A DNA stretch of 63,923 bases, filler included, from an uncultured bacterium (GTDB lineage Bacteria; CAZDME01; JAYEMH01): the NCBI GenBank assembly GCA_964506785.1. It is 5 parts of 5 records of this genome, joined end to end, with 100 filler letters (N's around TTAATTAATTAA, not from the genome) between each part and the next. Parts side by side here need not be neighbours in the genome. Positions count along the whole stretch, not along the records: positions 47,318 to 62,186 come from CAZDME010000032.1; 4 more parts are not named here. One strand, given 5' to 3'. This document shows, in pieces, positions 4,982-61,774 of the stretch. Under the pieces are notes generated by a model that did not search any database, had not been told where the DNA came from, and saw only the letters and a list, made by a program, of their open reading frames with translations. Both the position numbers and the translations under genes were made by a program. How positions within the stretch are numbered: the stretch's first letter is position 1; every line of letters starts with the position of its first letter.

Positions 4982-5068
4982 TCTTCGAAAAGGCAATCTG
5001 CCTGATTAAGCGGCAGAACGCAAAACCACGGGTTCTAAAGGATTGGAACAGCCGGGTTACCGAAAAGA
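4982..5068 (+). promoter_or_regulatory. Cyclic di-GMP-I (GEMM) riboswitch aptamer
   Basis: AAAGGCAA-P2(CTGCC/GGCAG)-ACGCAAAACCACGG..CTAA..ACAGCCGGGTTACCGAA matches the GEMM-I consensus; G at the G20-equivalent position. Confidence 0.8.
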
Positions 5069-25051: not shown

Positions 25052-26452
25052 TCAATTTTTTTTACCCGTCTCTTTTTGCTGCCTAAAGGCACGGGCAACT
25101 TCCCCGGCTAAATAAAGTGAGCCCGTAATAAGGATTAAATCCTTGATTTTGGCCTGGTTTAAAGCATATTTTAGAGCCTCTTTAACCCTTCCCTTAACCA
25201 CGCCGCTCCTGCCATATTTATTAAGGTTTTGAGAAATTATTTTAGCTGCCAGGGCCCGGCTGTTTTGGGGCTGGGTTATGACCACCCGATTAACCAAAGG
25301 AAGAAAAGCCTTTAAAATCCCATCGGCATCCTTATCTTTTAAACAACCAAAAATAAGAAAAGATTCTTTATACCCCCTTAATTTTTTCAAGGTTTTGGCT
25401 ACGGCAACAGCCGCCGAGGGATTATGGGCGCCGTCAAGTAAAACCATCGGCCTGGTAGAAATCAACTCAAGTCTCCCCGGCCAATAAACAGATTCTAAAC
25501 CCCTTCTGATTGCCTGACGATGAATTTCTATTCCGAAAAAACTCAGGCTTTCTACCGCCCCAATGGCTATGGCCGCATTTTCCGCTTGATATTCTCCCCC
25601 AAGAGACAATTTTAAATTTGAATAAATTCCCTTTAAGCCCTTAACCGTAATCACCCCACCCCAGGATTTAGGTGATTTGCCTTTGGGTTGAATAATTCGA
25701 AAAGAGAGAATTTTGATATCTTTACCAACTTTGATAAACTTTACCTTTTTCCGTTTACACCTCCCCTTTATAATCTCTAATATTTTGGGGTCTTTCTCGG
25801 CACTAATCACCACTCCCCCACCTTTTATTATCCCGGCCTTTTCTTTGGCAATTCTTTCTTTAGTTTTACCCAGGTACTCTGTATGTTCCAGACTGACATT
25901 AGTAATTACAGAAACCAGGGGATTCCCGATATTGGTAGCGTCCAACCGGCCGCCTAATCCCACCTCCATTACGGCAAAATCTACCTTTTTGGCGGCAAAA
26001 TAATCGAAGGCCAAAGCCGTTAAGGCCTCAAAAACCGTCGGCCCGTTTTTCTCTCTTTTTAATTTACTTATAACCGGCCTTGCTTTTTCTATCCCCTCGG
26101 CAAACTCTTTTTTGGATATAAAGGATAGTCCTTTCCCTTTTAAAATAGCCAGGCGTTCCTGCCAATCGGCTAAGTGAGGAGAAGTAAATAATCCAACCCG
26201 GAAACCGGCCGCCTCAAGGATATAGGCAACCATAGCCGCCGCTGACCCTTTGCCGTTAGTCCCGGCGACATGAATAATTTTAAGTCCTTTCTCGGGATGG
26301 CCTAAAAAAGCGGCCATCTCTTTGATTCTTTCCAGCCCCAGTTTTATGCCAAAACGCTGCAGGCGGGCAAGTTGACTCACCCCGTTAGAAAATTCGCCCG
26401 ACTTTTCTCTCTTCAAGTTAGCCCGTCCTTTCTTATTCCTAAATGTTTCCAT
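25052..26452 (-). CDS. folC: Folylpolyglutamate synthase/dihydrofolate synthase; native start (ATG 26528) separated by an inserted element
   Basis: AGTNGKGS, TSPHL, EVGLGGRLDATN, DGAHN, GSLYL. Confidence 0.93.
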   Translation of the reverse strand: METFRNKKGRANLKREKSGEFSNGVSQLARLQRFGIKLGLERIKEMAAFLGHPEKGLKIIHVAGTNGKGSAAAMVAYILEAAGFRVGLFTSPHLADWQERLAILKGKGLSFISKKEFAEGIEKARPVISKLKREKNGPTVFEALTALAFDYFAAKKVDFAVMEVGLGGRLDATNIGNPLVSVITNVSLEHTEYLGKTKERIAKEKAGIIKGGGVVISAEKDPKILEIIKGRCKRKKVKFIKVGKDIKILSFRIIQPKGKSPKSWGGVITVKGLKGIYSNLKLSLGGEYQAENAAIAIGAVESLSFFGIEIHRQAIRRGLESVYWPGRLELISTRPMVLLDGAHNPSAAVAVAKTLKKLRGYKESFLIFGCLKDKDADGILKAFLPLVNRVVITQPQNSRALAAKIISQNLNKYGRSGVVKGRVKEALKYALNQAKIKDLILITGSLYLAGEVARAFRQQKETGKKN

Positions 26453-26505
26453 CTTTCATGACCGTTTTGTAATTTGGGCGTTTGGCAGGTTTTTTTCTAA
26501 CGGGG
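26380..26505. mobile_element. Palindromic mini-element copy 1 (CCCCGTTAGAAA...TTTCTAACGGGG), 126 bp, in the folC 5' end
   Basis: 13-bp perfect terminal inverted repeat; flanks CTCA/CAAG (target duplication not preserved). Confidence 0.8.
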
Positions 26506-26530
26506 CAAGTTGCTTCAATGTAGTTCATTA

Positions 26531-27782: not shown

Positions 27783-27857
27783 TGGAGCTGACGAGTGGAG
27801 TTGAACCACCAGCCTGAGCTTTACGAAAGCCCTGCTCTGCCATTGAGCTACGTCAGC
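27783..27857 (-). tRNA. tRNA-Thr(CGT)
   Basis: Cloverleaf: acceptor GCTGACG/CGTCAGC, anticodon loop TTCGTAA, T-loop TTCAACT, encoded CCA. Confidence 0.95.
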
Positions 27858-28351: not shown

Positions 28352-28880
28352 CCTTGGATTCCCACAGGGTTATGCCGTATTCTATCTCTTCAAAAAATAC
28401 CGGTTCTTCTTTTTCCATCTCCACAAACTGAGTCGAATTACGAACAACGGGTTGAAGATTTCCTCTAAGGCTGCTTTTCTTAATGTTTTCTTCGGTGGTT
28501 TTTGGACTATTGGTAAGAATGAAAAGGTCAATATCGCTATTGGCTGCGTTTTCTCCTCGGGCGCAGCTACCAAAGAGAACTATTTTCTGGGAAAATTCTT
28601 TCAGTTTCTCTATCAGCGGTTGTAAGCATACTACTGTTCTTAAGACCTTTAACTGTTTAATAACGGGATTATTATAGTCAACGGAATAAAGATAAATTTT
28701 CGCTTTTTTTTCCCGAAGGACGAGTTTTTCTTTAGCAAGCTTGCGGAGAGAAAAATTGACCCCTGCCCTGCTCACTTTAGCAGCTTTCTCGATTTCCTTG
28801 GCCAGGAATTGCTTGCCTGGATTTTGAATGAGAAATTCTAAGACCTTCTGGGCGTTAGTTGATATAAGGCTGTTATTCAT
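28335..28880 (-). CDS. wHTH-fused minimal nucleotidyltransferase (MNT antitoxin)
   Basis: N-terminal HTH; LFGSCARGE...SDIDL (GSx10DxD). Confidence 0.88.
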   Translation of the reverse strand: MNNSLISTNAQKVLEFLIQNPGKQFLAKEIEKAAKVSRAGVNFSLRKLAKEKLVLREKKAKIYLYSVDYNNPVIKQLKVLRTVVCLQPLIEKLKEFSQKIVLFGSCARGENAANSDIDLFILTNSPKTTEENIKKSSLRGNLQPVVRNSTQFVEMEKEEPVFFEEIEYGITLWESKDESRI

Positions 28881-28908
28881 ATAAAGTTCCAGTGTTCTAT
28901 CTAAAAAA

Positions 28909-28954
28909 TTAGATGTACATCTAAAATAATATATGATTGCCCAAGAGATGTCAA
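28909..28954 (-). promoter_or_regulatory. Sigma70 promoter plus palindromic operator of the MNT-HEPN operon
   Basis: Minus-strand TTGACA-17-TATTAT; perfect palindrome TTAGATGTACATCTAA at 28909-28924. Confidence 0.7.
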
Positions 28955-29511
28955 GAAGTTTTTCTCGCCGCGTTTACCTTTAAAAACACCAAACTTGACA
29001 TCAATATATCAAAATATCCCCCAAAGTCAACTAAAAACTCAAAAGCTCAGCTTATTAACCCCTCCTTTGAAATAAAACATATATTCAATTTTTTGTAGCC
29101 TATATTTTATACCTAAACTCAAAGAAACTTATCTTTGACAATAAACCAAATCTATCTTAAAATGTAGCCGCACGGACAAATTTTATGAAAAAACTAACCC
29201 TAATCTTAAGCCTTATTCTCCTCTTCTCTTTCATCTCCATCCCGCCCAATTATAGGATATCCGATATCCTATAATTTTAGCGGCGAATAAATCAAATTAC
29301 CTATCTATCCCTCCGCAGATTTCTTCGAAATCTAAGCGCTGAAGCCCCCTCCCTTACCAATCCAGCCAGCTTTCTGCCTGTCTTTTCTGCTATCTCCCTT
29401 AGGCAGAGTATCATAGTTTTCCTAACCTAATTTAGTCCCAAAATAAAAATTCGGCCTTCTAAACAACTTGGCCGAAACCTTCCCCACCTTCTATCCCCGG
29501 GCTGAGCTTTA

Positions 29512-29593
29512 CACCGGTAGAAACCCTTATCTGCCGTCAGAGAAGTCCGCCGAAAGCATGGTGCCTATTTGCGGTGGATTATTTCTAACGGGG
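29512..29593. mobile_element. Palindromic mini-element copy 2 (82 bp, intergenic, degenerate left end)
   Basis: TTTA-CACCGGTAGAAA...TTTCTAACGGGG-TTTA (4-bp duplication). Confidence 0.7.
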
Positions 29594-29662
29594 TTTACTA
29601 CCCCCCTCCTGCCATTAAGCGGCAAATACCGGACTAAAAGACAACACAATGCTTTTAGCCAT

Positions 29663-30628
29663 TTATAATAATTCCTCTGCCAGATACGAAACTTTTTCGT
29701 CCAACTGCTTAATTATTTTATATTGCTCCTCTAATACAGTAATGCCTCCGTTCATTATTAAATTACGCAAGCTGTCTTTATATCCGCAATAGCTAGATAA
29801 AACACCCAACCAAAACATAAACTTTGACTTTACATCCTGGTTTTGAATCAAGCTGAGCACGTTTTTTTCTGCTTCGTCCGCCAGAGAAAATGAAATTTTC
29901 TTAAACCACCTGAAAGTCGCATAGAAATATCCTAATTCCCAGAAAGGGTTTACCTCATTTGAGAAATAATCGAAATCTGTGCTCAAAGCCTCTATTCTAT
30001 CAAAACTTCGCATAACTCTAAAATTCCAAATATGAGGGTCTTCAATACCGCAGCCATAGGAAAATTTATTGATTGAATGTTTAAGTTTCAATAAACTAAT
30101 TCTAGTTTTGGGTAAAAATTCAAAACCGTAGGTAGAGTCTTTTGCCAATTCTAAAGCGACTTGAACAATAGAAGGAATCACGAATGGTTTATAACTCTGG
30201 TTAATAGAGTTTATCTCTTTGAGATATTCAAAGACAGAAATTAAACTTGAAACAAGGTCATTAGGATTATTTAGCAAATGATCTATCAAGAACTCTCCTA
30301 TCCGTTCGCATAGCACAGTATTATCATAGGGGTATAAATTGACTATTTTGGGAAATAATTTGTTGCGGCACTTCAAAAAGGTTGTTGTTTCAATAAGTTT
30401 TAGATAATCGTCCTTTTTTGCATAAGTTGTAGAGACATATTGTTTAAATTGTTTGTCTATAATGCTGCAGACAATTTTAGCCGGCCATCTATTTTCGTTA
30501 TTGAGAGGAGCTTCCATTATATATCCATATTGCCTTAAAGGAAAATGTGATTGCAGATATGGATTTTGTAATTTTTTATACCCCCTATCTAATAAAAAAT
30601 CTATTTTACCTACCGCTAAATGGTTCAT
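29663..30628 (-). CDS. Hypothetical protein, possible APH/choline kinase-like phosphotransferase
   Basis: EDPHIWNF (Brenner-like DxxxxN), TDFD, PFWELG; low GC. Confidence 0.5.
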   Translation of the reverse strand: MNHLAVGKIDFLLDRGYKKLQNPYLQSHFPLRQYGYIMEAPLNNENRWPAKIVCSIIDKQFKQYVSTTYAKKDDYLKLIETTTFLKCRNKLFPKIVNLYPYDNTVLCERIGEFLIDHLLNNPNDLVSSLISVFEYLKEINSINQSYKPFVIPSIVQVALELAKDSTYGFEFLPKTRISLLKLKHSINKFSYGCGIEDPHIWNFRVMRSFDRIEALSTDFDYFSNEVNPFWELGYFYATFRWFKKISFSLADEAEKNVLSLIQNQDVKSKFMFWLGVLSSYCGYKDSLRNLIMNGGITVLEEQYKIIKQLDEKVSYLAEELL

Positions 30629-39572: not shown

Positions 39573-39649
39573 ACCTTCTTTGTTATCTCTAACGGGGCAG
39601 GTGCGGATTTTCAGGTGGACAGGCTTTATAGGGTCTATGGGATAAGTAA

Positions 39650-45341: not shown

Positions 45342-46682
45342 CTAAATAATCGGTAAATACTTTTTTAATTCATGGGAGGTTATCTGAATACGATATTCCT
45401 CCCATTCTTTCTTTTTATTCAAAATGAAGCGGTTGAAAATGTGCTCGCCCAGGGCTTCTCTAACAAACTTACTCTTCTCTGTTTCCATAATGGCTTCAAG
45501 AAGGCTACCGGGCAGGGCAGTTAGTTTTCGGTTTTCTATCTCTGCATTTTTCATTTTATAAATATTCGGTTCAACCGGCTTAGGCAGTTTGTATTTTTTC
45601 TCAATTCCTTCCAATCCTGCCGCCAGCATTACCGAAAAGGCCAAATAGGGATTGCAGGCTCCGTCCGGGCAGCGCAGCTCGGCCCGGATTGCCTCTTCTT
45701 TTCCCGGGTGATAATGTGGTACGCGAATAAGAGTAGTGCGGTTACGCTGCGCCCAGGAGATATAAACGGGGGCTTCGTAGCCGGCGACTAAACGTTTATA
45801 GGAATTTACCCATTGGGCGGTCAAGGCGCAGATTTCCCGGGCGTGAGTGAGCTGCCCGGCAATAAATTGTTTAGCCGTTTCTGAAAGGTGATATTTATCA
45901 CTGGGGTCAAAGAAACTGTTTTTATTGCCGCTTTTTAAAGACTGATGGAGATGCATACCGCTTCCATTTACTCCGAGTAGAGGTTTAGGCATAAAGGTGG
46001 CGTAGACGCCGTGGCGCTGAGCAATTTCCCGAATAACCATTCGAGAGGTAATAATGTTATCAGCCATACTAAGGGCTTCATTATACTTCAGGTCAATTTC
46101 ATGCTGGCTGGGAGCGACTTCATGATGGCTGGATTCAATGGTTATTCCCATCTCTTCGAGCATTTTGATGGTTTGGTTACGAAGGAAATTGGCCAAGTCA
46201 TTAGGGATAACTTCAAAATAGGTTCCTTGGTCAAGCGTTTCGGGTCTTTCATTATTTTTGAAATAAAAGTATTCTAATTCCGGGCCGACATGATATCGGA
46301 ATCCCATTTTTTCGGCTCGGGCTATATTTCTTTTTAAAGCATAGCGGGGGTCACCCGGATAAGGATTGCCGTCAGGGCTTAAAAGGTCGCAAAAGAGCCG
46401 GGCAGTTCGCGGCTGATCGCTTTGCCAGGGTAAAATTTGTAAGGTAGCCGGGTCCGGCTTAGCTAAAATATCACTTTCCTCTGCTTCGGCAAAACCAGTA
46501 ATAGAAGAGCCGTCGAAACCTTTACCCTGGTTAAGGGCTTCTTCCAGTTCACCTCGGGTGATAGAGACACATTTTAGAATCCCCAGGATATCGGTAAACC
46601 AGAGCTGGATAATTTCTATCTTTTCATCGGAAATTTTGGAAAAAACCGCCTGCTTAGTCAGTTTTTCTTTCTTGGCCATCAT
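45342..46682 (-). CDS. glnA: Glutamine synthetase type I (copy 1)
   Basis: FDGSSI, ESD, HHEVA, TFMPKP, NGSGMH, SYKRL, ELRCPD. Confidence 0.95.
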   Translation of the reverse strand: MMAKKEKLTKQAVFSKISDEKIEIIQLWFTDILGILKCVSITRGELEEALNQGKGFDGSSITGFAEAEESDILAKPDPATLQILPWQSDQPRTARLFCDLLSPDGNPYPGDPRYALKRNIARAEKMGFRYHVGPELEYFYFKNNERPETLDQGTYFEVIPNDLANFLRNQTIKMLEEMGITIESSHHEVAPSQHEIDLKYNEALSMADNIITSRMVIREIAQRHGVYATFMPKPLLGVNGSGMHLHQSLKSGNKNSFFDPSDKYHLSETAKQFIAGQLTHAREICALTAQWVNSYKRLVAGYEAPVYISWAQRNRTTLIRVPHYHPGKEEAIRAELRCPDGACNPYLAFSVMLAAGLEGIEKKYKLPKPVEPNIYKMKNAEIENRKLTALPGSLLEAIMETEKSKFVREALGEHIFNRFILNKKKEWEEYRIQITSHELKKYLPII

Positions 46683-52760: not shown

Positions 52761-52841
52761 CCCCGTTAGAAATATTGGAAATAAAGGAAAAACTTTAAAG
52801 GGCGATGTTTCTAATGGAATGAGGTAGAGTTTCTAACGGGG
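52761..52841. mobile_element. Palindromic mini-element copy 3 (81 bp) in the amtB leader
   Basis: TTTA-CCCCGTTAGAAA...TTTCTAACGGGG-CTTA; degenerate inner end TTTCTAATGG. Confidence 0.8.
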
Positions 52842-54733: not shown

Positions 54734-54812
54734 AGAGCACAGGGTTTGTGCTCTTTAGTATCAATGACAAAGATGTTCTAAGCGGTGTTGCGCTTGGAAC
54801 GTCTTTTTTTTT
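54734..54812 (+). promoter_or_regulatory. ANTAR dual hairpin + terminator (glnA leader)
   Basis: AGAGCAC-AGGGTTT-GTGCTCT; GAC-AAAGAT-GTT overlapping terminator AGATGTTCTAAGCG/CGCTTGGAACGTCT plus T run. Confidence 0.85.
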
Positions 54813-54828
54813 AAAAAGGAGGGAAGAA

Positions 54829-56163
54829 ATGGCTAAAAAGACAAAAGAAGAAATTTTAAAAGTAGTAAAAGAACAAGATGTGAAGTTTATCCGTCTCTGG
54901 TTTACAGATATCTTGGGCCAGGTGAAAAGCTTTGCCATTACCGATGGCGAATTAAAAAATGCCTTGGAGAATGGAATGGGATTTGACGGGTCCTCAATAA
55001 CGGGTTATCAGTCTATCGAAGAAAGCGATATGTTAGCCGTGCCAGACCCAGCCACTTTTCAGATTCTTCCCTGGAGACCGCAGGAAAAAAAGGTTGCCAG
55101 GATGATTTGTGATATTCTTACGCCTGAGAGAAAACCTTATGAGGGAGACCCGCGTTATGTTTTAAAAAGAGCTTTAGAACGAATGAAAAAAATGGGATTT
55201 AATCATTATTATCTGGGGCCAGAATTGGAATATTTCTACTTCAAGAATAATGCCTCAAGCACCGATATACTGGATAAGGGAGGGTATTTCGATTTAACTA
55301 CTCTGGATGTGGCCAGCGACCTTCGCCGGGATACAATCCTGGCTTTGGAATCCATGGGTATTCCAATAGAATACTCCCACCATGAAGTAGGTCCAAGCCA
55401 ACACGAGATTGATATGAGATACACCGATGCCCTACAGATGGCCGACCATGTTATTACTTACCGAATAGTTGTCAAAGAGATAGCCCAGAAATATGGAGTC
55501 TATGCTACGTTTATGCCAAAGCCTTTGTTCGGCCAAAACGGAAGTGGAATGCATACGCACCAGTCTTTGTTTAAAGGCGACAAAAACGCCTTCTTTGACA
55601 AAGATAATAAGTACCATCTATCCGATACAGCCAATAAATTTATTGCCGGTCAGCTCAGGCATGCGCGAGAAATGAGTGCTATTTTTGCGCAATGGGTGAA
55701 TTCATATAAGAGGCTTGTTCCAGGATACGAGGCGCCGGTTTATATCGCTTGGTCAAAAAGAAACCGTTCAGCTCTAATTCGCGTACCCGTATACCACCCA
55801 GGCAAGGAGAAAGCTACACGGGCCGAACTTAGATGTCCCGACCCAGCCTGCAACCCTTACCTTACCTTTGCGGTAATGCTTCAGGCAGGGCTGGAAGGGG
55901 TAGAGCGAAAATACAAACTTCCCGAGCCGATGGAAAAAAATCTATATCATTTATCCAGCGAAGAAAGAAAGGAGTTGGGTATCGAATCTCTGCCTGACAG
56001 TTTAGGAGAAGCGGTTCTCATTACCGAAGGAAGCGGGCTTGTTAAGAAGGCTTTAGGGGACCATGTGTTTACGAGATTCATAACATTGAAAAAAAAGGAC
56101 TGGGAAAATTATAGAATACAGGTTACAAAGTATGAGCTGGACAATTTTCTCCCTATATTATAA
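54829..56163 (+). CDS. glnA: Glutamine synthetase type I (copy 2, regulated)
   Basis: FDGSSI, EESDM, HHEVG, TFMPKP, NGSGMH, SYKRL, NRSALIR; AGGAGG RBS before ATG 54829. Confidence 0.96.
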   Translation: MAKKTKEEILKVVKEQDVKFIRLWFTDILGQVKSFAITDGELKNALENGMGFDGSSITGYQSIEESDMLAVPDPATFQILPWRPQEKKVARMICDILTPERKPYEGDPRYVLKRALERMKKMGFNHYYLGPELEYFYFKNNASSTDILDKGGYFDLTTLDVASDLRRDTILALESMGIPIEYSHHEVGPSQHEIDMRYTDALQMADHVITYRIVVKEIAQKYGVYATFMPKPLFGQNGSGMHTHQSLFKGDKNAFFDKDNKYHLSDTANKFIAGQLRHAREMSAIFAQWVNSYKRLVPGYEAPVYIAWSKRNRSALIRVPVYHPGKEKATRAELRCPDPACNPYLTFAVMLQAGLEGVERKYKLPEPMEKNLYHLSSEERKELGIESLPDSLGEAVLITEGSGLVKKALGDHVFTRFITLKKKDWENYRIQVTKYELDNFLPIL

Positions 56164-56282
56164 ATGATAATAATTATTAAGTATATCCCATCGTTTTTCC
56201 ATTGAGCAGAAAGGGAAAAAATAGAATAATAAAAAAATTTATCTCATCGTGCTTAAATTTTAGGCATGAAGATAACGGAGAT

Positions 56283-57446
56283 ATGATGGAGGCTAAAGTT
56301 AAATTCCAAGAAAAGGACATAAGCGGCTGTGCCATAGTCGGCATAATGGATAAAACGGGCAAAAGGTCTTCTGGTAAAGATATTATTACCTCAATTGCCT
56401 CTATGCGCGACCGTGCCAATGGCTTAGGCGGCGGATTTGCCGCTTATGGAATTTATCCCGAACACAGAAACGACTGGTGTTTTCATATGATGTTTGAGAA
56501 TAAATCCAGCCTGGTTCAGACGGAAGAATATCTTAAGGATAATTATAAAATAGTAAAAGATGGGATTATACCTACAAGAGAAGATAAATCCATAAGGTAT
56601 CGGCCTCTACTATGGCGGTATTTTCTGCAACTCAAGGTAGAAAAGACAAAGCTATATTACGATTTAACAGAAGAAGATTTTGTGGTGAAGACAGTAATGG
56701 AGATAAACACCAAAATCCCCGGGGCTTTTGTCGCCTCGAGCGGTAAAAATATGGGCATATTTAAAGGAGTGGGGTATCCAGAAGATATCGGAAGATTTTA
56801 CAGATTAGAGGAATACGAAGCCTATATCTGGACAGCGCACGGTCGGTTCCCTACAAATACAGTCGGTTGGTGGGGGGGGGCGCATCCCTTTGGCCTTCTG
56901 GATTGGTCGGTTGTGCATAACGGAGAGATTTCCTCTTATGGAATTAATAAAAGGTTTCTGCTAAATTACGGATATATCTGTGCATTTTTTACTGATACCG
57001 AAGTGATAACTTATCTTTTTGACCTTTTGGTTAGAAAACATAACCTTTCTTTTGAGGTAGTCGCAGATATACTGGCAGCTCCCTTTTGGGACGAAATAGA
57101 CCCCGTTAGAAATACCAATGGGTCTAATAAAAGAGAAAGAATTTCTAACGGGGTAGAAAGGCAGCCACAGGGAAAAAAAGAATTTCTAAAGGCACTTCGT
57201 ATAATTTATGGCAGCGCCCTGGTTAATGGCCCTTTTAGTGTTATTCTTGCCAATTCCTCTACTATGGTAGGGTTAAACGACCGAATAAAGCTTCGGCCTT
57301 TGGTGGCGGCAACTTCGGGCGATAAAGTTTATATTGCCTCTGAAGAATCAGCCATCCGGGAGGTTTGTCCTGGCCCGGATAAAGTGTGGATGCCTGAGGC
57401 AGGAAAGCCAGTTGTCGGCAGGCTTATTGAGGTAGAAAATGGCTAA
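56283..57446 (+). CDS. Class II glutamine amidotransferase, GOGAT subunit (GlxB/GltB1-like)
   Basis: GCAIVG N-terminal Cys, R.NGLGGG, HGRFPTN, HPF, HNGE, TDTE, DRIKLRP. Confidence 0.9.
57101..57153. mobile_element. Palindromic mini-element copy 4 (53 bp), in frame within the amidotransferase
   Basis: TAGA-CCCCGTTAGAAAT...ATTTCTAACGGGG-TAGA; 53+4=57 bp; adds [19 protein letters not shown]. Confidence 0.9.
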
Positions 57447-59007
57447 GAGACCGATACCCCCAGAATTTATTGTAGAAAGAGACGATGAGAAATGCGTTGC
57501 CTGTCAGGCTTGCGTTAGGATGTGTGCTAATGATGTACATTCATACGATCCTGAGACTGATACAATATCGTCTGACAGCGCCGAATGCGTTGGCTGTCAT
57601 TTTTGTGAAACTTTCTGTCCTGCTGGCGCGATTACAATAAAACGCAATCCCTCTGAGTTTAAACTAAATGCTAACTGGAATGCCCAGGTAATCAAAAATA
57701 TTACTAAACAGGCAGAAACCGGGGGAGTGTTACTTACCGGAATGGGCTCTGATAAGCCTTATCCAATTTACTGGGACCATATTGTCCTTAATGCTTCACA
57801 GGTAACTAATCCTTCAATCGATCCTTTGCGTGAACCAATGGAGCTGCGTACTTATATCGGAAGGAAGCCGGACAGAATCGAATTTAGCAGTCAGAAAACA
57901 GAAGACAGAAATCAGAAAAAGAAAAAGGAAGAGAATCTGTCGCCTGACATCTGTCATCTGACATCCGGGATTCCGCCACAACTAAAATTAGAGACTCCGA
58001 TTTTATTCAGTGCAATGAGTTATGGTTCAATAAGTCTTAATGCTTGCAAGTCGCTTGCCAGAGCGGCGCAAGAAATGAGGACTTTTTATAATACCGGTGA
58101 AGGCGGACTTCATAAAGAGCTGTATAAATACGGTCCTAACACGATTATCCAGGTAGCTTCGGGAAGATTTGGAGTGCATAAGGAATATTTGGAAGCAGGT
58201 TCTGCGATTGAGATAAAAATTGGCCAGGGGGCAAAGCCTGGAATTGGCGGGCATTTGCCAGGAGAAAAGGTGTCGGAAGAAATCAGCCAGACCAGAATGA
58301 TACCGGTTGGGACCGATGCCTTGTCTCCCGCGCCTCACCATGACATTTATTCCATAGAGGATTTGAAGCAGTTAATCTTTGCCTTGAAAGAAGCGACACG
58401 ATATAAAAAACCAGTAGGGGTGAAAATCTCTGCGGTGCATAATGTCGCTCCTATTGCCTCCGGTATAGTCAGGGCAGGGGCAGATTTTGTCGCCATAGAT
58501 GGTTTACGAGGCGGAACAGGAGCGGCTCCGCAAGTTATAAGAGATAATGTTGGCATTCCTATCGAGTTGGCAATTGCCGCAGTAGACCAACGCCTGCGAG
58601 AGGAAGGTATCAGGAATCAGGCATCTTTGATTGCCGGTGGAGGTATAAGGTCCAGTTCCGACGCGATCAAGGCTATTGCTTTAGGAGCAGATGCCGTTTA
58701 TATCGGTACGGCCGCTTTAGTGGCGATGGGGTGTAACCTCTGTCAGAAATGTTATACAGGGAAATGTAACTGGGGCATTGCCACCCAGGACCCTTATCTT
58801 ACTAAAAGGCTTAATCCAGATATAGGTGCGCAAAGATTGGTTAATTTGTTGCGTGCCTGGAGTTTAGAGATAAAGGAGATGCTCGGCGGCATGGGTATAA
58901 ATGCTATCGAGAGTTTAAGAGGCAACAGAGAACAGCTCAGAGGTATAGGACTGTCCGATACAGACTTGAAATTATTGGGCATAAAAGCGGCAGGTGAGGC
59001 ATGGTAA
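57439..59007 (+). CDS. FMN-binding glutamate synthase subunit with N-terminal 2x[4Fe-4S] (GlxD/GltB2-like)
   Basis: [48 protein letters not shown], Cx2Cx2Cx4C. Confidence 0.93.
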
Positions 59008-59103
59008 CGCGCCTTCGGCGCGAGTTTTCAGTTGACAGTTAACAGAAGACAGAAAACAGCAAAGTGTAAACACGTCTTGTGAACAATACAATAGAGAAAA
59101 GAG

Positions 59104-59547
59104 ATGAAGAAGATAATAATCAGAGAAGAATATTGTATGGGATGCAGACTTTGCGAAGTTCATTGCCTGGTGCAGCATTCTAAAACGAAGAATATAATCA
59201 AGGCATACAAAGGAGAATATCCGAAACCAACTCCAAGAATTATCGTGGAAGAAAAAGGGTATGTTTCATTTGCGCTTCAGTGCCGGCATTGTGAAGATGC
59301 CCCATGTTTAGAGGCCTGCATAACAGGCGCACTGTATCGGGATAAAAAAATAGGGGCGGTTCTTTTAGACGAAGATAAATGTGTAGGCTGCTGGATGTGC
59401 ATTATGGTTTGTCCATTCGGGGTGATATCAAGAAATGTAGAAGGGAAAAAGATAGCTTCTAAATGTGACTTATGTATGGGGGAAGAAATACCCGTTTGCG
59501 TGAAAAATTGTCCTAACGGAGCGATAGTTTACGAGGAAAAGAAATGA
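59104..59547 (+). CDS. 4Fe-4S dicluster protein (HydN/CooF-like), GOGAT electron-transfer partner
   Basis: Four Cys cluster motifs; KCDLC. Confidence 0.9.
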   Translation: MKKIIIREEYCMGCRLCEVHCLVQHSKTKNIIKAYKGEYPKPTPRIIVEEKGYVSFALQCRHCEDAPCLEACITGALYRDKKIGAVLLDEDKCVGCWMCIMVCPFGVISRNVEGKKIASKCDLCMGEEIPVCVKNCPNGAIVYEEKK

Positions 59548-60878
59548 ACCCCGTTAGAAATCAAAATAACCCTGTAAGAAAACAAGATATTTCTAACGGG
59601 GTGAATTATGTAATTATTGGTAATTCGGCAAGTGGAATTGCATCCGTAGAAGCAATTCGCGAGTATGATAGGAAGGGTAAAATAACCGTTATATCTAATG
59701 AGGCGCAATTTAATTATTCACGGCCCTTAATATCGTATCTTTTAGGGAAAAAGGTGCCGATGGAGAGGATGCCTTTCCAGGCGAGAGATTTTTATAAGGA
59801 TAATAAAATAGATTTGATTTTAAATAAGGAAGCAACAAAATTGGATTTGGAAAGAAAATATGTAATTTTAGCCGATGGAGGAAAAATCCCTTTCGATAAG
59901 CTGCTTATTGCCACAGGAGGTAGACCGATTGTACCCGAAATTAAAGGGATGAATCTAAACGGGGTATTTACTTTTACCAATCTCGACGATGCCCAAAGGA
60001 TAGAAAGGCATATCAAGGCCAACAGGGTTAAAAGAGCGGTTGTCTTAGGAGGTGGGCTGATAGGGCTGAAAGCAACAGAGGCTCTTATCGAATTAAAGAT
60101 TAAAATTGCTATTGTAGAACTTGCGGATAGAATTTTATCGGCAACCTTTGACCGAAAGGCTTCACGTATAATCGAAACTGCTTTGGAAAAAATAGATTGC
60201 CGCGTTATTGCCAATAATACGATTGTCGAGATAAAAGGCAGGAACAATCAGGTGGAAGAGGTGATTCTAAAAGACAAGAAGAGAATCCCGGCAGAATTGG
60301 TTATCATTGCAATCGGCGTCAGCCCTAACGTGGAATTGGCGAAGAATAGCTCTATAAAGATGAATAAAGGTGTCCTGGCAGATAATTTTATGCGGACAAA
60401 TATCTTGGATGTTTATGCGGCCGGCGACTGCTCGGAAGCACGAGATTGTCTTTTAGGCAAAAATCGCCCTATTGCCATTTGGCCGGTGGCAAAAAGGCAA
60501 GGCAAAATTGCAGGTTTCAATATGGCCGGAATGAAAAGAGAATATCAGGGAAGTTTTGCCATGAACTCTGTAGAGCTATGCGGTATTCCTACTATTTCTT
60601 TAGGACAAACACTGTCTGAAGGAAAGGACTGCCGGATTTTAGAGCATTTTGATAAAAACAAGGCTATATACAAGAAGATTGTTCTAAAAAAGGGAATGAT
60701 TATCGGTATTATTTTCGTAAATGATATTGAGCGGGCAGGAATTTACGCCGGCCTTATTAAAGATAAGGTTGATGTAAGTGGTTTCCAAGAAAATCTTTTA
60801 AAAGAAGATTTTGGATTTATCAGTTTGCCCAAGGGATACAGAAAGCATCTGGTAACCGGAGAGGTCTCGACATTATGA
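59544..60878 (+). CDS. FAD/NAD(P)-dependent oxidoreductase (NirB-like N-domain), GOGAT partner
   Basis: IIGNSASG, DKLLIATG, LGGGLIG, YAAGD. Confidence 0.9.
   Translation: MNPVRNQNNPVRKQDISNGVNYVIIGNSASGIASVEAIREYDRKGKITVISNEAQFNYSRPLISYLLGKKVPMERMPFQARDFYKDNKIDLILNKEATKLDLERKYVILADGGKIPFDKLLIATGGRPIVPEIKGMNLNGVFTFTNLDDAQRIERHIKANRVKRAVVLGGGLIGLKATEALIELKIKIAIVELADRILSATFDRKASRIIETALEKIDCRVIANNTIVEIKGRNNQVEEVILKDKKRIPAELVIIAIGVSPNVELAKNSSIKMNKGVLADNFMRTNILDVYAAGDCSEARDCLLGKNRPIAIWPVAKRQGKIAGFNMAGMKREYQGSFAMNSVELCGIPTISLGQTLSEGKDCRILEHFDKNKAIYKKIVLKKGMIIGIIFVNDIERAGIYAGLIKDKVDVSGFQENLLKEDFGFISLPKGYRKHLVTGEVSTL
59549..59601. mobile_element. Palindromic mini-element copy 5 (53 bp), in frame at the oxidoreductase N-terminus
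   Basis: TGAA-CCCCGTTAGAAAT...ATTTCTAACGGGG-TGAA; removal gives MNYVIIG. Confidence 0.9.
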
Positions 60879-61774
60879 GCCCCGTTAGAAATTACGACAG
60901 CCAAAAAATGAAGAATGTTTCCAATGATAATTATAGTTTTGACAGATTTAGGTCAAGCAAATTTTCTAACGGGGTGAGAATAGATGCCAAGGGGATGTTT
61001 TATAAAGAACTCAATGAATTAATCCATCAGGCAGCGGATAGCGGGAAGAAAAATATTACTTTAGATAATGTCAATGGGCAGCGTTATATCGGGACCGGGC
61101 TATCTGGTGATATGAAAGTTACCATTAACGGAGTGCCGGGTAATGACCTTGCCGCTTTTATGGATGGACCGACCATTATAGTTAATTCTAACGGGCAGGA
61201 TGGTATAGGTAATACCATGAATGCCGGCAAAATCATTGTCCATGGCGATGCTGGCGATATTGTTGGCCATTCTATGCGAGGCGGTAAGATTTATATCGAG
61301 GGAAACACTGGCTATAGAATCGGCATCCATATGAAATCCTATAAGGATTTATATCCGGTTATAATAATAGGGGGAAACGTTAGAGATTTTTTGGGAGAAT
61401 ATATGGCTGGTGGACTGATAATAGTATTAGGGCTACACGGGGAAGAAGGTGTCAGGTATGAGGGATTAGGTGACAGAAAAAAAGATAAGCCCCAAGAATC
61501 CATAACCTACAACCCGTTACCTATAGTGGGTAGCTACTGTGGTACAGGTATGCATGGCGGGACAATATATATTCGCGGCAATATAGAAAATTACCGATTA
61601 GGCAAAGAGGTACAAAAGGGCAAGTTGAGTAAAGAGGACAATAAAATATTAAGGGCGTATTTGAAAGAATATTGCGCTTATTTTTCGCTGAACCCGGAAA
61701 ATATTCTAAAGAGCAGCTTCGTCAAGCTCAGTCCTTCAAGTTATCGTCCTTATGGGAAATTATATGCGTATTGA
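60875..61774 (+). CDS. GXGXG-domain glutamate synthase subunit (GlxC/GltB3-like)
   Basis: GQRYIG, GVPGNDL.AFMDG, G.TMN.G, FLGEYMAGG, GTGMHGG. Confidence 0.9.
   Translation: MSPVRNYDSQKMKNVSNDNYSFDRFRSSKFSNGVRIDAKGMFYKELNELIHQAADSGKKNITLDNVNGQRYIGTGLSGDMKVTINGVPGNDLAAFMDGPTIIVNSNGQDGIGNTMNAGKIIVHGDAGDIVGHSMRGGKIYIEGNTGYRIGIHMKSYKDLYPVIIIGGNVRDFLGEYMAGGLIIVLGLHGEEGVRYEGLGDRKKDKPQESITYNPLPIVGSYCGTGMHGGTIYIRGNIENYRLGKEVQKGKLSKEDNKILRAYLKEYCAYFSLNPENILKSSFVKLSPSSYRPYGKLYAY
60880..60974. mobile_element. Palindromic mini-element copy 6 (95 bp), in frame at the GXGXG subunit N-terminus
   Basis: TGAG-CCCCGTTAGAAA...TTTCTAACGGGG-TGAG; 95+4=99 bp; removal gives MRIDAKG. Confidence 0.9.

Follow-up and report, generated by a model that had tools for sequence, protein, structure and literature searches.

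Very small MITE-like elements with 12- to 13-bp inverted ends in the glutamate-synthase operon of an uncultured bacterium and in genomes carrying at least six phylum labels

Introduction

In the glutamate-synthase (GOGAT) operon of an uncultured bacterium (assembly GCA_964506785.1), three genes each carry a short palindromic segment, bounded by the same inverted ends and read through in frame. What are these segments, and how did they come to lie within conserved enzymes? A preliminary description proposed a non-autonomous element with inverted ends that duplicates a 4-bp target, inserts in frame into proteins, and has unrelated interiors. We addressed these proposals in the window, that is, the whole stretch of 63,923 nucleotides analyzed here, and in copies collected from other genomes.

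Copies in the Window

The element ends in the window are CCCCGTTAGAAA/TTTCTAACGGGG, and eleven perfect 12-mers were found, making five perfect pairs. All six copies listed in the preliminary description, 53–126 bp long, were present, five of them with perfect 12–13-bp inverted ends; none is assigned a strand. Three lie in the glutamate-synthase operon: 57101–57153 (53 bp) inside the GATase_2 subunit gene (56202–57446), 59549–59601 (53 bp) at codon 3 of the Pyr_redox_2 oxidoreductase gene (59544–60878), and 60880–60974 (95 bp) at codon 3 of the GXGXG subunit gene (60875–61774). The other two perfect pairs are at 52761–52841 (81 bp), between the genes for a LuxR-type regulator and amtB, and at 26380–26505 (126 bp), around codon 8 of a FolC-like Mur-ligase gene (25052–26452, minus strand). 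The sixth copy, at 29512–29593 (82 bp), is intergenic and has a degenerate left end, CACCGGTAGAAA, with two mismatches. Allowing up to two mismatches, the window held 21 end matches compared with 9.3 expected, a number reached in 1 of 100 shuffles. A seventh site, missing from the preliminary description, is a solo intergenic right end of the AGAGA variant on the minus strand at 39586–39597 (TCTCTAACGGGG on the plus strand), whose partner has decayed.

The flanks agreed with the four perfect and one near-perfect target duplications reported before: TAGA at 57097–57100 and 57154–57157 around copy 57101, TGAA around copy 59549, TGAG around copy 60880, TTTA around copy 29512, and TTTA/CTTA around copy 52761. 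Copy 26380 is without a 4-bp duplication, and an imperfect repeat of about 12 bp flanks it on both sides instead. Decayed inner ends, also reported before, were found at 59570 within copy 59549 (a left end, CCCTGTAAGAAA) and at 52808 within copy 52761 (a right end). No Rfam family matched the window elements, and no transposase was found among the 44 window ORFs scanned against Pfam, 4 of which were without a Pfam match.

Insertions in the Glutamate-Synthase Operon and Other Genes

In the GOGAT genes the three copies account for 57, 57, and 99 additional bp, read in frame as PVRN...ISNGV, so that translation bore out the earlier reading; deleting each element with one duplicate reproduced the clean sequences WDEIERQ, MNYVIIG, and MRIDAKG. 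Copy 57101 inserts 19 residues into the GATase_2 subunit, and all 32 aligned orthologues were 18–22 residues shorter exactly at this insert, meaning that empty sites, for which the preliminary description had proposed a search, exist and that the segment is not ordinary shared protein sequence. The insert was modelled as an unstructured loop (pLDDT <50; mean pLDDT of the whole model, 84). Copies 59549 and 60880 both sit in ATGA stop/start overlaps, the latter adding 33 residues. The Pfam match of the Pyr_redox_2 protein begins at residue 21, GXGXG subunit orthologues align from residue ~34–36, and orthologues of both proteins align only from just past the insert. These results support the proposal that new peptide segments were added to real proteins. 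The best matches of the GOGAT proteins, at 72–73% identity, come from MAGs with mixed labels, and a search with HflX yielded no close relative.

Strong hairpins at translation starts, another earlier claim, were recovered by computation: hairpins at or near start codons have energies of roughly −20 kcal/mol (−20.6 kcal/mol for copy 59549). In the FolC-like gene, the old ATG at 26528 now meets a TAG inside copy 26380, and an ATG at 26452, also inside the copy, reads ...EFSNGV into the protein. Among the elements as a whole, some interiors likewise contain a Shine-Dalgarno-like motif and an ATG that read via ISNG into LeuRS, Memo/AMMECR1, and FolC-like genes. In contigs of three other samples all four sites were occupied and no empty allele was seen, although rare forms may escape contigs; a further sample contributed small pieces only.

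Target Duplication, Size, and Frame

The duplication statistics below refer to 138 copies in other genomes, the ORF analysis to 137, and the lengths to 132. Perfect 4-bp duplications flank 78 of the 138 copies, compared with 8.4 expected and a maximum of 20 in 2000 shuffles, and in 102 copies the flanks agree at three or more of the four positions; offsets of 2, 3, 5, and 6 bp gave only 0–5 duplication matches. The target is Y-N-N-R, mostly TTTA/TAAA, TGAA/TTCA, or TTGA/TCAA: flank position −4 is T or C in 251 of 262 ends and position −1 is A or G in 258 of 262, and TTAA accounts for 1 of the 76 perfect duplications tallied. Together with the inverted ends, these duplications support the earlier proposal of a non-autonomous mobile element.

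Copies range from 29 to 131 bp. The smallest, of 29 bp (12+5+12), are multi-copy, and some have intact duplications; minimal copies of 29–33 bp carry TAAA/TTTA duplications. In the 29-bp copies all 24 stem bases are perfect, and within one genome no two 5-nt loops are alike; the perfection of these stems is partly a matter of ascertainment, because the search was seeded on perfect ends. The loops of 35-bp copies in one genome (G003) are related to one another. Near-identical copies occupy different sites of one genome, and two 59-bp copies that differ by 1 nt (L113) carry different duplications; these, like a 123-bp family with 91–95% identity at many loci of G007, are signs of recent movement.

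Starting at position 13 and moving inward, base counts are close to random. The view that the interiors are unrelated was overstated: conserved-interior subfamilies exist, and much of the variety comes from nesting, which was commonly observed. Examples are a 53-bp subfamily, "ATACC...AAGAT," that includes copy 57101 and families of 101 and 120 bp in one Desulfobacterota MAG. The arms matched perfectly in 158 pairs, and one arm carried one, two, or three mismatches in 40, 19, and 25 pairs, respectively. End variants are mostly symmetric, as expected for subfamilies matched to variant enzymes: both arms are identical in 6 of the 8 single changes and in 4 of the 5 double ones. One variant end, TCCCGTTAGAGA, was seen in three genomes.

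Of the 137 copies, 30 lie in ORFs that stay open for 50 codons or more on each side, all of them in frame and free of stops; only 2 of the 137 had the look of an ORF disruptor after in silico removal, which leaves 30 of 32 candidates within ORFs open and in frame. In 83 of 132 copies the length is 2 mod 3. Each end holds a stop in one of the three reading phases, and intragenic copies are essentially only those whose length plus 4 is divisible by 3 and which lack stops, read as PVRN...ISNG(V). Some copies at the beginning of a gene provide its ATG. The in-frame copies of the earlier claim are real; about half of all copies, however, lie outside long ORFs, and the in-frame copies are most simply survivors of selection, with frame not being a property of insertion.

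Distribution across Genomes

Scanning other genomes for both ends, much as the preliminary description had suggested for the genome and its relatives, revealed carriers in many phyla, and the frame statistics showed the in-frame bias given above. The same end pair matches at least 120 stretches beyond the window, in MAGs labeled Omnitrophota, Planctomycetota, Patescibacteria, Desulfobacterota, Nitrospirae, and Elusimicrobia. Its ends are the same under at least six phylum labels, and the element is not tied to one lineage. Every carrier is a metagenome-assembled or single-cell genome, and the assemblies are independent, from several studies and assemblers. At least four ends per strand were present in 12 of 151 Omnitrophota genomes (control pattern, 0–3), and the paired pattern occurred in 3 of 151 Planctomycetota genomes, in none of 151 Pseudomonadota genomes, and in none of five named control genomes. 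Ends per strand reached 57–89 per genome, compared with 0–3 for reversed-pattern controls; G001 alone has 57 copies.

Genes between closely spaced copies were all housekeeping genes, as were the gene families common to 120 loci among the matches listed. Real paired elements were present in only three viral contigs. The single-end 14-mer has at least 120 matches in viral contigs, which we rejected as chance matches within phage genes, and recurrent viral "pairs" of 744 and 1623 bp proved to be homologous phage ORFs with identical flanks.

Search for a Mobilizing Enzyme

A transposase flanked by the same ends, which the preliminary description had proposed to look for, was sought and not found among the genomes examined. 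In the 2.45 Mb examined, long-read MAGs included, there were neither orphan end pairs 300–8000 bp apart nor an autonomous copy; MAGs are often without their IS copies. In two long-read MAGs, 20 of 21 perfect ends that looked orphaned belonged to short elements whose partner end has one to three mismatches, and the remaining one was truncated.

The ends flank none of the 30 DDE_Tnp_1 loci examined (of 55 matches), and DDE_Tnp_1 was absent from three of the five top Omnitrophota carriers. PF01609, which detects the IS1380 copies of G006, gave no match in G019, G069, or G029, and the IS701 and IS630 families were each absent from G019, G026, and G069. The IS1380 profile NF033539 had no match in G001, G002, G004, G009, or G010 and only a weak one in G008. 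No cognate IS with the same ends lay beside 30 DDE_Tnp_1, 19 IS1380, 2 IS701, or 5 IS630 matches, and among the genomes examined no transposase of these four kinds was common to the carriers. The piggyBac family PF13843 matched in none of five genomes, but it also matched in none of 14 control genomes, so that this result is no proof of absence.

Several candidate parents were discarded. The ends flank none of the DDE_Tnp_1, IS1182, IS701, and IS630 elements in the carriers, and at an IS630 copy in G001 two elements merely adjoin, each with its own TAAA flank. Every IS1380 copy examined has other ends: the types in G003, G005, G006, and G007 end in CCTGAAAAAAGCG, CCCTGAAAAAGATA, CCCAAATCCCGATA, or CCCTAATCCGTAAT, and the copies in G003, G005, and G006 have 5-bp duplications. 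The stretch CCCCGTTTGAAA near one IS1380 transposase stop is internal sequence, because homology runs past it in relatives. In the literature searched, main texts only, the end sequences in 10–12-mer forms turned up in nothing beyond unrelated primers, and no IS examined has these ends; thus, the match to a described IS and its MITE that the preliminary description had named as a test was not found.

Comparison with Known Repeats

Bacterial MITEs such as Correia, ERIC, Nezha, and Chunjie resemble our elements in their terminal inverted repeats, target-site duplication, lack of coding capacity, multiple copies, stable RNA hairpin, and occasional in-frame intragenic copies, as far as described in excerpts of PMC3184786 and PMC10969869. 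The elements studied here likewise are small, multi-copy, and non-coding, with terminal inverted repeats, a duplication of fixed length, and signs of recent movement. Chunjie has 21-bp terminal inverted repeats and 9-bp repeats according to the excerpt of PMC3184786. Because of these lengths, the element is not Chunjie. Unlike bacterial MITEs in general, only 12–13 bp are conserved here, copies as short as 29 bp look functional, the carriers bear at least six phylum labels, and a parent IS was not found among the genomes examined.

Rickettsia palindromic elements (RPEs) are about 100–150 bp long, have a sequence conserved throughout each family, and are not known outside Rickettsia. Our elements share with them the in-frame entry into unrelated housekeeping ORFs and the tolerated peptide segments (PMC10969869, as excerpted), with the modelled disordered loop as a further likeness. 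In contrast to RPEs, the 12–13-bp ends alone are shared and define the family, the 4-bp duplications are clear, roughly half of the copies lie between genes, and the carriers belong to many phyla.

A third likeness is to the transposons of the IS1380 family and the related eukaryotic piggyBac, whose ends begin with CC(C) and which make 4–5-bp duplications at A+T-rich targets; our elements also start with CC(C) and have 4-bp duplications. The IS1380 types examined, however, end in CCTGAAAAAAGCG and CCCTGAAAAAGATA with 5-bp duplications, and their transposase is absent from several carriers, which sets the elements apart from an IS1380-derived MITE. The piggyBac hallmarks, TTAA and DDE_Tnp_1_7, also differ, given the single TTAA among 76 duplications; the PF13843 search is weak on this point, with 0 control matches.

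Integron attC sites are ~57–141 bp, imperfect palindromes with conserved ends and variable centers, and the cores GTTAGA and TCTAAC fit GTTRRR and YYYAAC. The order here is GTTAGAA...TTCTAAC on either strand, whereas in attC it is RYYYAAC...GTTRRRY; unlike attC, the elements have target duplications and intragenic sites and form no cassette arrays. Elhai and co-workers reportedly described in 2008 very small dispersed cyanobacterial repeats, tens of bases long, that nest and enter genes. To our knowledge, no enzyme has been recorded for those repeats, and they are lineage-restricted; compared by description alone, they differ from ours in sequence and taxa.

Origin of the Elements

We consider it probable that the copies represent a very small, MITE-like non-autonomous DNA transposon moved in trans by an enzyme. 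The conserved part is the 12–13-bp terminal inverted repeat alone, CCCCGTTAGAAA(T), which a trans-acting transposase would recognize, and entry occurs at a 4-bp staggered cut that duplicates a Y-N-N-R tetranucleotide. The transposase gene may be without the same ends, or may lie on DNA outside these assembled genomes. Interior diversity would have arisen by nesting, internal deletion, and drift, with only intact-ended elements going on to move; the in-frame copies would be the residue of purifying selection, and the same or closely related enzymes may have passed horizontally between anaerobic lineages of sediment and groundwater. Against this reading stand the absence of a transposase from our searches, the occupation of the four sites in three other samples, and the perfect stems with differing 5-nt loops, which neutral descent alone does not give.

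The last point could favor a mobilizing gene that is single-copy and vertically inherited (domesticated), as in REPIN/RAYT systems, with the hairpins kept as useful to the host, for example as mRNA stabilizers, translation dampers at operon junctions, or portable starts. REPINs are short hairpin doublets whose arms are better conserved than the spacer, with no transposase inside and a mobilizer that is not a normal IS. The absence of an autonomous copy even in near-complete long-read MAGs, the perfect stems beside diverging loops and interiors, the symmetric arm variants, the Shine-Dalgarno-like motifs with ATG leading into LeuRS, Memo/AMMECR1, and FolC-like genes, and the insertions fixed in three other samples would all suit such a system. 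HUH/RAYT enzymes, however, are not known to make 4-bp duplications of variable sequence such as those seen here, and the arms are not palindromic REPs and are without the GTAG/CGTC tag described for REPs in the available part of PMC3733652; it is on arms and duplications alone that the elements are set apart from REPIN/RAYT. The very patchy distribution within phyla is also easier to square with invasion than with long vertical co-inheritance, many arms are decaying (40, 19, and 25 pairs with one, two, and three mismatches against 158 perfect), and no candidate gene was found, so we regard this explanation as unlikely. The minimal copies, pure hairpins with 12-bp perfect stems and 5-nt loops that vary in one genome, could also be read as templated insertions in which, for instance, a reverse transcriptase or polymerase copies a 12-nt template and snaps back, with a fresh loop at each event; the symmetric variants and the searches that yielded no transposase agree with this. 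Yet the non-palindromic 27–100-bp interiors of longer copies are inherited as families, beyond snap-back synthesis, the loops of the 35-bp copies are related, and a 4-bp duplication, exact and at a preferred target, is the mark that the staggered cut of a transposase or integrase leaves. Such templated synthesis is therefore very improbable.

Even less probable is that the segments are intervening sequences, removed by IES-like DNA excision, by RNA splicing, or by translational bypass via the duplicated 4-mer, so that the inserted peptides are never made. Ciliate IESs do have conserved ends and variable interiors, identical 4-mers surround each copy here, and a stable hairpin could stall ribosomes; but frame and freedom from stops would be needless if the segments were removed, and 30 of 32 candidates are in frame (30 copies against 2 doubtful disruptors, of 137) with 83 of 132 lengths being 2 mod 3. 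Moreover, contigs of three samples, from which rare forms may escape, showed neither joints nor indels at the four sites, and no Rfam family matched. That the palindromes arose by chance, that the segments are ordinary conserved protein sequence, or that assembly or sequencing created them could be suggested by the metagenome-assembled or single-cell nature of all carriers and by the chance occurrence of a single 14-mer end in phage genes; this can be practically dismissed, since reversed-pattern controls gave 0–3 per genome against up to 89, the duplications, frame bias, and orthologue gaps oppose chance, and independent assemblies from several studies and assemblers, as well as contigs of three other samples with the same insertions, carry the elements.

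Returning to the transposon moved in trans, a bolder version is conceivable but doubtful: a near-minimal transposon of 29 bp, with identical ends in at least six phyla and without an autonomous parent, whose mover is a conserved enzyme, not itself flanked by the ends, that spreads horizontally or has been domesticated by the host, and which supplies the core genes of uncultured anaerobes with new peptide loops, new N-termini, and portable start codons.

Implications for Genomes and Proteins

If the transposon reading holds, few mobile units seen in bacteria are smaller, and the elements would join the short list of MITE-like families whose ends are identical from phylum to phylum. Such identity would point to an unrecognized transposase, broadly transferred or domesticated, in groundwater and sediment lineages that cannot be grown in culture, and once the enzyme is known, an element with 12-bp ends could serve as a compact engineering tool. 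The copies also offer a natural experiment in protein evolution, with dozens of independent in-frame insertions of 11–40 residues in conserved enzymes such as the GOGAT subunits. Copies near starts or supplying them occur in LeuRS, FolC-like, and Memo/AMMECR1 genes, and at element sites gene callers would mis-set start codons and predict odd N-termini (M..K.KISNG).

Copies of the Element in the Window

The window (63,923 bp, 41% G+C) contains 11 perfect matches to the 12-mer CCCCGTTAGAAA, both strands counted, forming five perfect inverted pairs at 26380-26505, 52761-52841, 57101-57153, 59549-59601, and 60880-60974. Together with a copy at 29512-29593, whose left arm has two mismatches, these are the six copies with conserved inverted ends reported in the preliminary description; a seventh site, at 39586-39597, is a solo end of a variant type. 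When up to two mismatches were allowed, 21 end matches were obtained compared with 9.3 expected, a number reached in 1 of 100 shuffles. The 4-bp target duplications were likewise recovered, being perfect around the intergenic copy 29512 (TTTA/TTTA), copy 57101 in the GATase_2 subunit gene (TAGA/TAGA), copy 59549 at codon 3 of the Pyr_redox_2 oxidoreductase gene (TGAA/TGAA), and copy 60880 at codon 3 of the GXGXG subunit gene (TGAG/TGAG), and near-perfect around the intergenic copy 52761 (TTTA/CTTA). Each pair is predicted to fold into a stem of 13-14 bp, with a folding energy near -20 kcal/mol or lower, and the codon-3 copies bear out the strong hairpins proposed at translation starts.

Copy 26380 has no 4-bp duplication; in its place, the flanks (26366-26379 and 26506-26517) hold an imperfect 12-bp repeat (10/12), possibly the result of a secondary rearrangement where folC starts. 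Degenerate copy 29512 lies in a stretch of ~780 bp (28880-29663) that contains no ORF of 100 residues or more, near a tRNA gene (27786-27857, minus strand).

Insertions in Host Genes

The gene content of the window is that of an ordinary chromosome (cell-wall, LptD, tryptophan, sugar-nucleotide, and nitrogen genes), and no transposase was found among the 44 window ORFs compared with Pfam. Three copies (57101, 59549, and 60880) are housed in a split glutamate-synthase cluster, the latter two exactly in ATGA stop/start overlaps. As had been claimed, they add 57, 57, and 99 bp in frame, with the translation PVRN...ISNGV. The segment in the GATase subunit is missing from each of the 32 orthologues aligned, which are 18-22 residues shorter exactly at the insert (between ..FWDEID and RM..), and the orthologue alignments of the Pyr_redox_2 and GXGXG proteins begin only just behind their own inserts. 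In an AlphaFold2 model of the GATase subunit (28 orthologues in the alignment; mean pLDDT 84), the insert is an unstructured loop between two helices with pLDDT below 50, a value to which the low alignment depth across the insert may contribute. A GATase-subunit match in a Methanoperedens MAG (L140:1820-3067) contains two stop codons; this gene may be broken, or its N-terminal part misaligned.

Copy 26380 is inserted near the eighth codon of a minus-strand FolC-like gene; three of the four coding copies fall at or within about the first eight codons, as first described. The old ATG of this gene now meets a stop within the copy, and an internal ATG reads through ..EFSNGV into the FolC-like protein. 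In three further samples, which are metagenomes from sediment and seawater, contigs cover each of the four sites between 52761 and 60880 and differ from the window by 0-7 letters, with no indel or joint at the elements, rare empty alleles being invisible in contigs.

Occurrence in Other Genomes

The ends were then sought beyond the window genome, as had been suggested for its relatives. An exact search for two ends 25-55 bp apart in contigs from one genome per species returned at least 120 stretches under at least six phylum labels. Among the 120 matches listed, all from MAGs or single-cell genomes, the record titles named 48 Planctomycetota, 32 Patescibacteria, 17 Omnitrophota, 9 Desulfobacterota-type, 2 Nitrospirae, 2 Elusimicrobia, 2 Clostridia (one MAG), 1 Gammaproteobacteria, and 7 unclassified organisms. 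A 1.4-Mb Omnitrophota MAG contained 57/57 ends and a 3.1-Mb Desulfobacterota MAG 85/89, compared with 0-1 for the reversed-pattern control in each. At least four ends per strand were present in 12 of 151 sampled Omnitrophota species (control at most 3), and the paired pattern occurred in 3 of 151 Planctomycetota species, seed genome counted, in none of 151 Pseudomonadota species, and in none of five named control genomes. The element is not private to the window genome, and its distribution is patchy.

Real paired copies were also present in three viral contigs. Separately, homologous phage ORFs (L431, L433, L458, L504, L520; L473, L481, L498) hold the 14-mer end by chance, in frame as PLEM.., and generate spurious "pairs" at fixed spacings of 744 and 1623 bp, a trap for pattern scans.

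Target Sites, Lengths, and Reading Frame

The 120 loci among the matches listed yielded 138 copies, 28-200 bp long, in which neither end had more than one mismatch. A perfect 4-bp flanking repeat was found in 78 of the 138, whereas shuffling of the partners predicted 8.4 (and never more than 20 in 2000 shuffles), and 24 more matched at three of four positions. Offsets of 2, 3, 5, or 6 bp yielded only 0-5 matches; thus, the duplication is exactly 4 bp. The flank consensus is Y-N-N-R (T/C at -4 in 251 and A/G at -1 in 258 of 262 ends), and G is over-represented at -5; the duplications seen most often were TAAA (15), TTTA (11), TGAA (7), and TTGA (7), and TTAA occurred once.

Lengths start at 29 bp, with modes at 53, 59, 62, 65, 68, and 77-79 bp, and are 2 mod 3 in 83 of 132 copies, so that element plus duplication preserves the frame. 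The frame statistics point the same way: 30 of 137 copies are located in frames that stay open for 50 codons or more to each side, every one in frame, and in-silico removal opened a long ORF in only two further cases, both weak. Part of this bias arises because one phase of the end reads CCC CGT TAG, a stop; inside ORFs, the PVR phase was used 25 times and the PLE phase 4 times. By our own reasoning, the common targets TAAA and TGAA would start with a stop codon in the PLE phase. Five gene-start copies, 26380 among them, have an internal stop and an internal ATG whose frame continues via ISNG into an ORF of 100 codons or more, as in LeuRS (MAISNG..) and a Memo/AMMECR1 protein (MCKKAKISNG..).

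Interiors and End Variants

The preliminary description regarded the interiors as unrelated, and base counts inward of position 13 are indeed close to random; however, families with conserved interiors exist. The Desulfobacterota MAG G007 carries 101-bp and 120-123-bp families with hairpin-rich interiors, full-length copies being 78-95% identical and their duplications almost always TAAA/TTTA. A 53-bp family, in which the ends are followed inward by ATACC...AAGAT, has three copies in the Omnitrophota MAG G001 and one in a Planctomycetia MAG, with window copy 57101 as a diverged member, and a 59-62-bp Planctomycetota family has an internal ATG. From genome to genome, members of one family occupy loci that are not homologous. 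Several Omnitrophota genomes contain multiple minimal copies of 29-33 bp (12+5+12); some of these retain an intact duplication of TAAA or TTTA, and the loops vary between copies. Nested and tandem copies are frequent, in line with the nested insertion suggested by inner decayed ends; in copies 59549 and 52761, such ends can come from nesting together with deletion between repeated ends.

The same change was present in both arms in six of eight pairs with one change per arm and in four of five with two, and the variant TCCCGTTAGAGA recurs in three genomes; we read these symmetric variants as probable sub-families. Besides 158 perfect pairs, one arm had one mismatch in 40 pairs, two in 19, and three in 25, some of the last being likely chance; because such one-arm decay is common, the "perfect ends" are partly a product of how copies were found. 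In G001 contig 148 (L398:1350-1546), an IS630-like element has two adjacent elements of the AGAGA end variant immediately beyond its end; TAAA follows each of the two, and their left flanks are TAAA and TTAA.

Search for a Mobilizing Enzyme

Orphan-end pairs 300-8000 bp apart were absent from the 2.45 Mb scanned. Two long-read MAGs, one of which comprises 5.2 Mb in two large contigs, contained 21 perfect ends that looked like orphans; 20 of them had a partner at a distance of 40-150 bp with 1-3 mismatches and one was truncated, a result that carries more weight than the other enzyme negatives. Since IS1380 elements have ends beginning with CC and 4-5-bp duplications, this family was the first candidate. 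Some carriers do have IS1380 copies, but the ends of these are different and their duplications are 5 bp long; an end look-alike proved to be internal sequence, and IS1380 was not detected in G001, G002, G004, G009, or G010. The long-read Desulfobacterota MAG G006 holds 12 identical copies of one IS1380-family element, with ends CCTGAAAAAAGCG and 5-bp TANNA-type duplications, and two copies of a second (loci L340, L342, L344-L346; L335, L338).

For DDE_Tnp_1, none of 30 loci (of 55 matches in five carriers) was flanked by the ends, no match occurred in three of the five top Omnitrophota carriers, and the two G001 matches are IS1182 elements with other inverted repeats. None of the IS copies examined carries the ends of the element. 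The IS701 and IS630 families were each missing from G019, G026, and G069; piggyBac gave no match, the control search being equally silent; and genes between close copies, like families common to the 120 loci listed, were all housekeeping. A transposase flanked by the same ends, which the preliminary description had proposed to seek, was found neither in these scans nor among the IS families of the carriers, a weak absence because MAGs often lose IS copies.

Nature of the Element

Several features together make it probable that this is a MITE-like element moved in trans: the duplications are of fixed length but variable sequence and fall at a preferred target, the ends are inverted, copies nest in one another, near-identical copies occupy different sites, the spread is patchy, and orthologues show gaps. 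It would be a DNA transposon mobilized by an enzyme encoded elsewhere, and the in-frame, stop-free genic copies would be what selection left; that this enzyme is an IS1380/piggyBac-like DDE enzyme can only be guessed from the style of ends and duplications. A REPIN/RAYT-like domesticated system, the heaviest of the rivals, is unlikely, and the element failed membership of the REPINs as it did of IS1380-derived MITEs, piggyBac, Rickettsia palindromic elements (RPE), and attC. We consider a templated hairpin-insertion process quite improbable and removable intervening sequences slightly more so, and artefact or chance would be the most surprising explanation of all.

The MITE-like element works like a MITE and resembles RPE in genic behavior. 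It differs from described families in that only 12-13 bp are conserved, elements are as short as 29 bp, no parent element was found, and genomes with at least six different phylum labels share identical ends. The end sequences are printed in the main text of no paper among the literature searched, although they may be listed unnamed elsewhere (e.g., in ISfinder or supplements), and a keyword search returned general MITE papers only (among them PMC10969869, PMC3184786, and PMC3733652).

Other Features of the Window

Two glutamine synthetase paralogues lie within 10 kb, at 45345-46682 (minus strand) and 54748-56163 (plus strand), the second in an amtB/P-II/glnA/split-GOGAT cluster headed by a LuxR-type regulator gene. 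In addition, a c-di-GMP-I riboswitch (4982-5064; 52 bits) is located directly upstream of an ORF of 889 residues (5187-7856) without a Pfam match.
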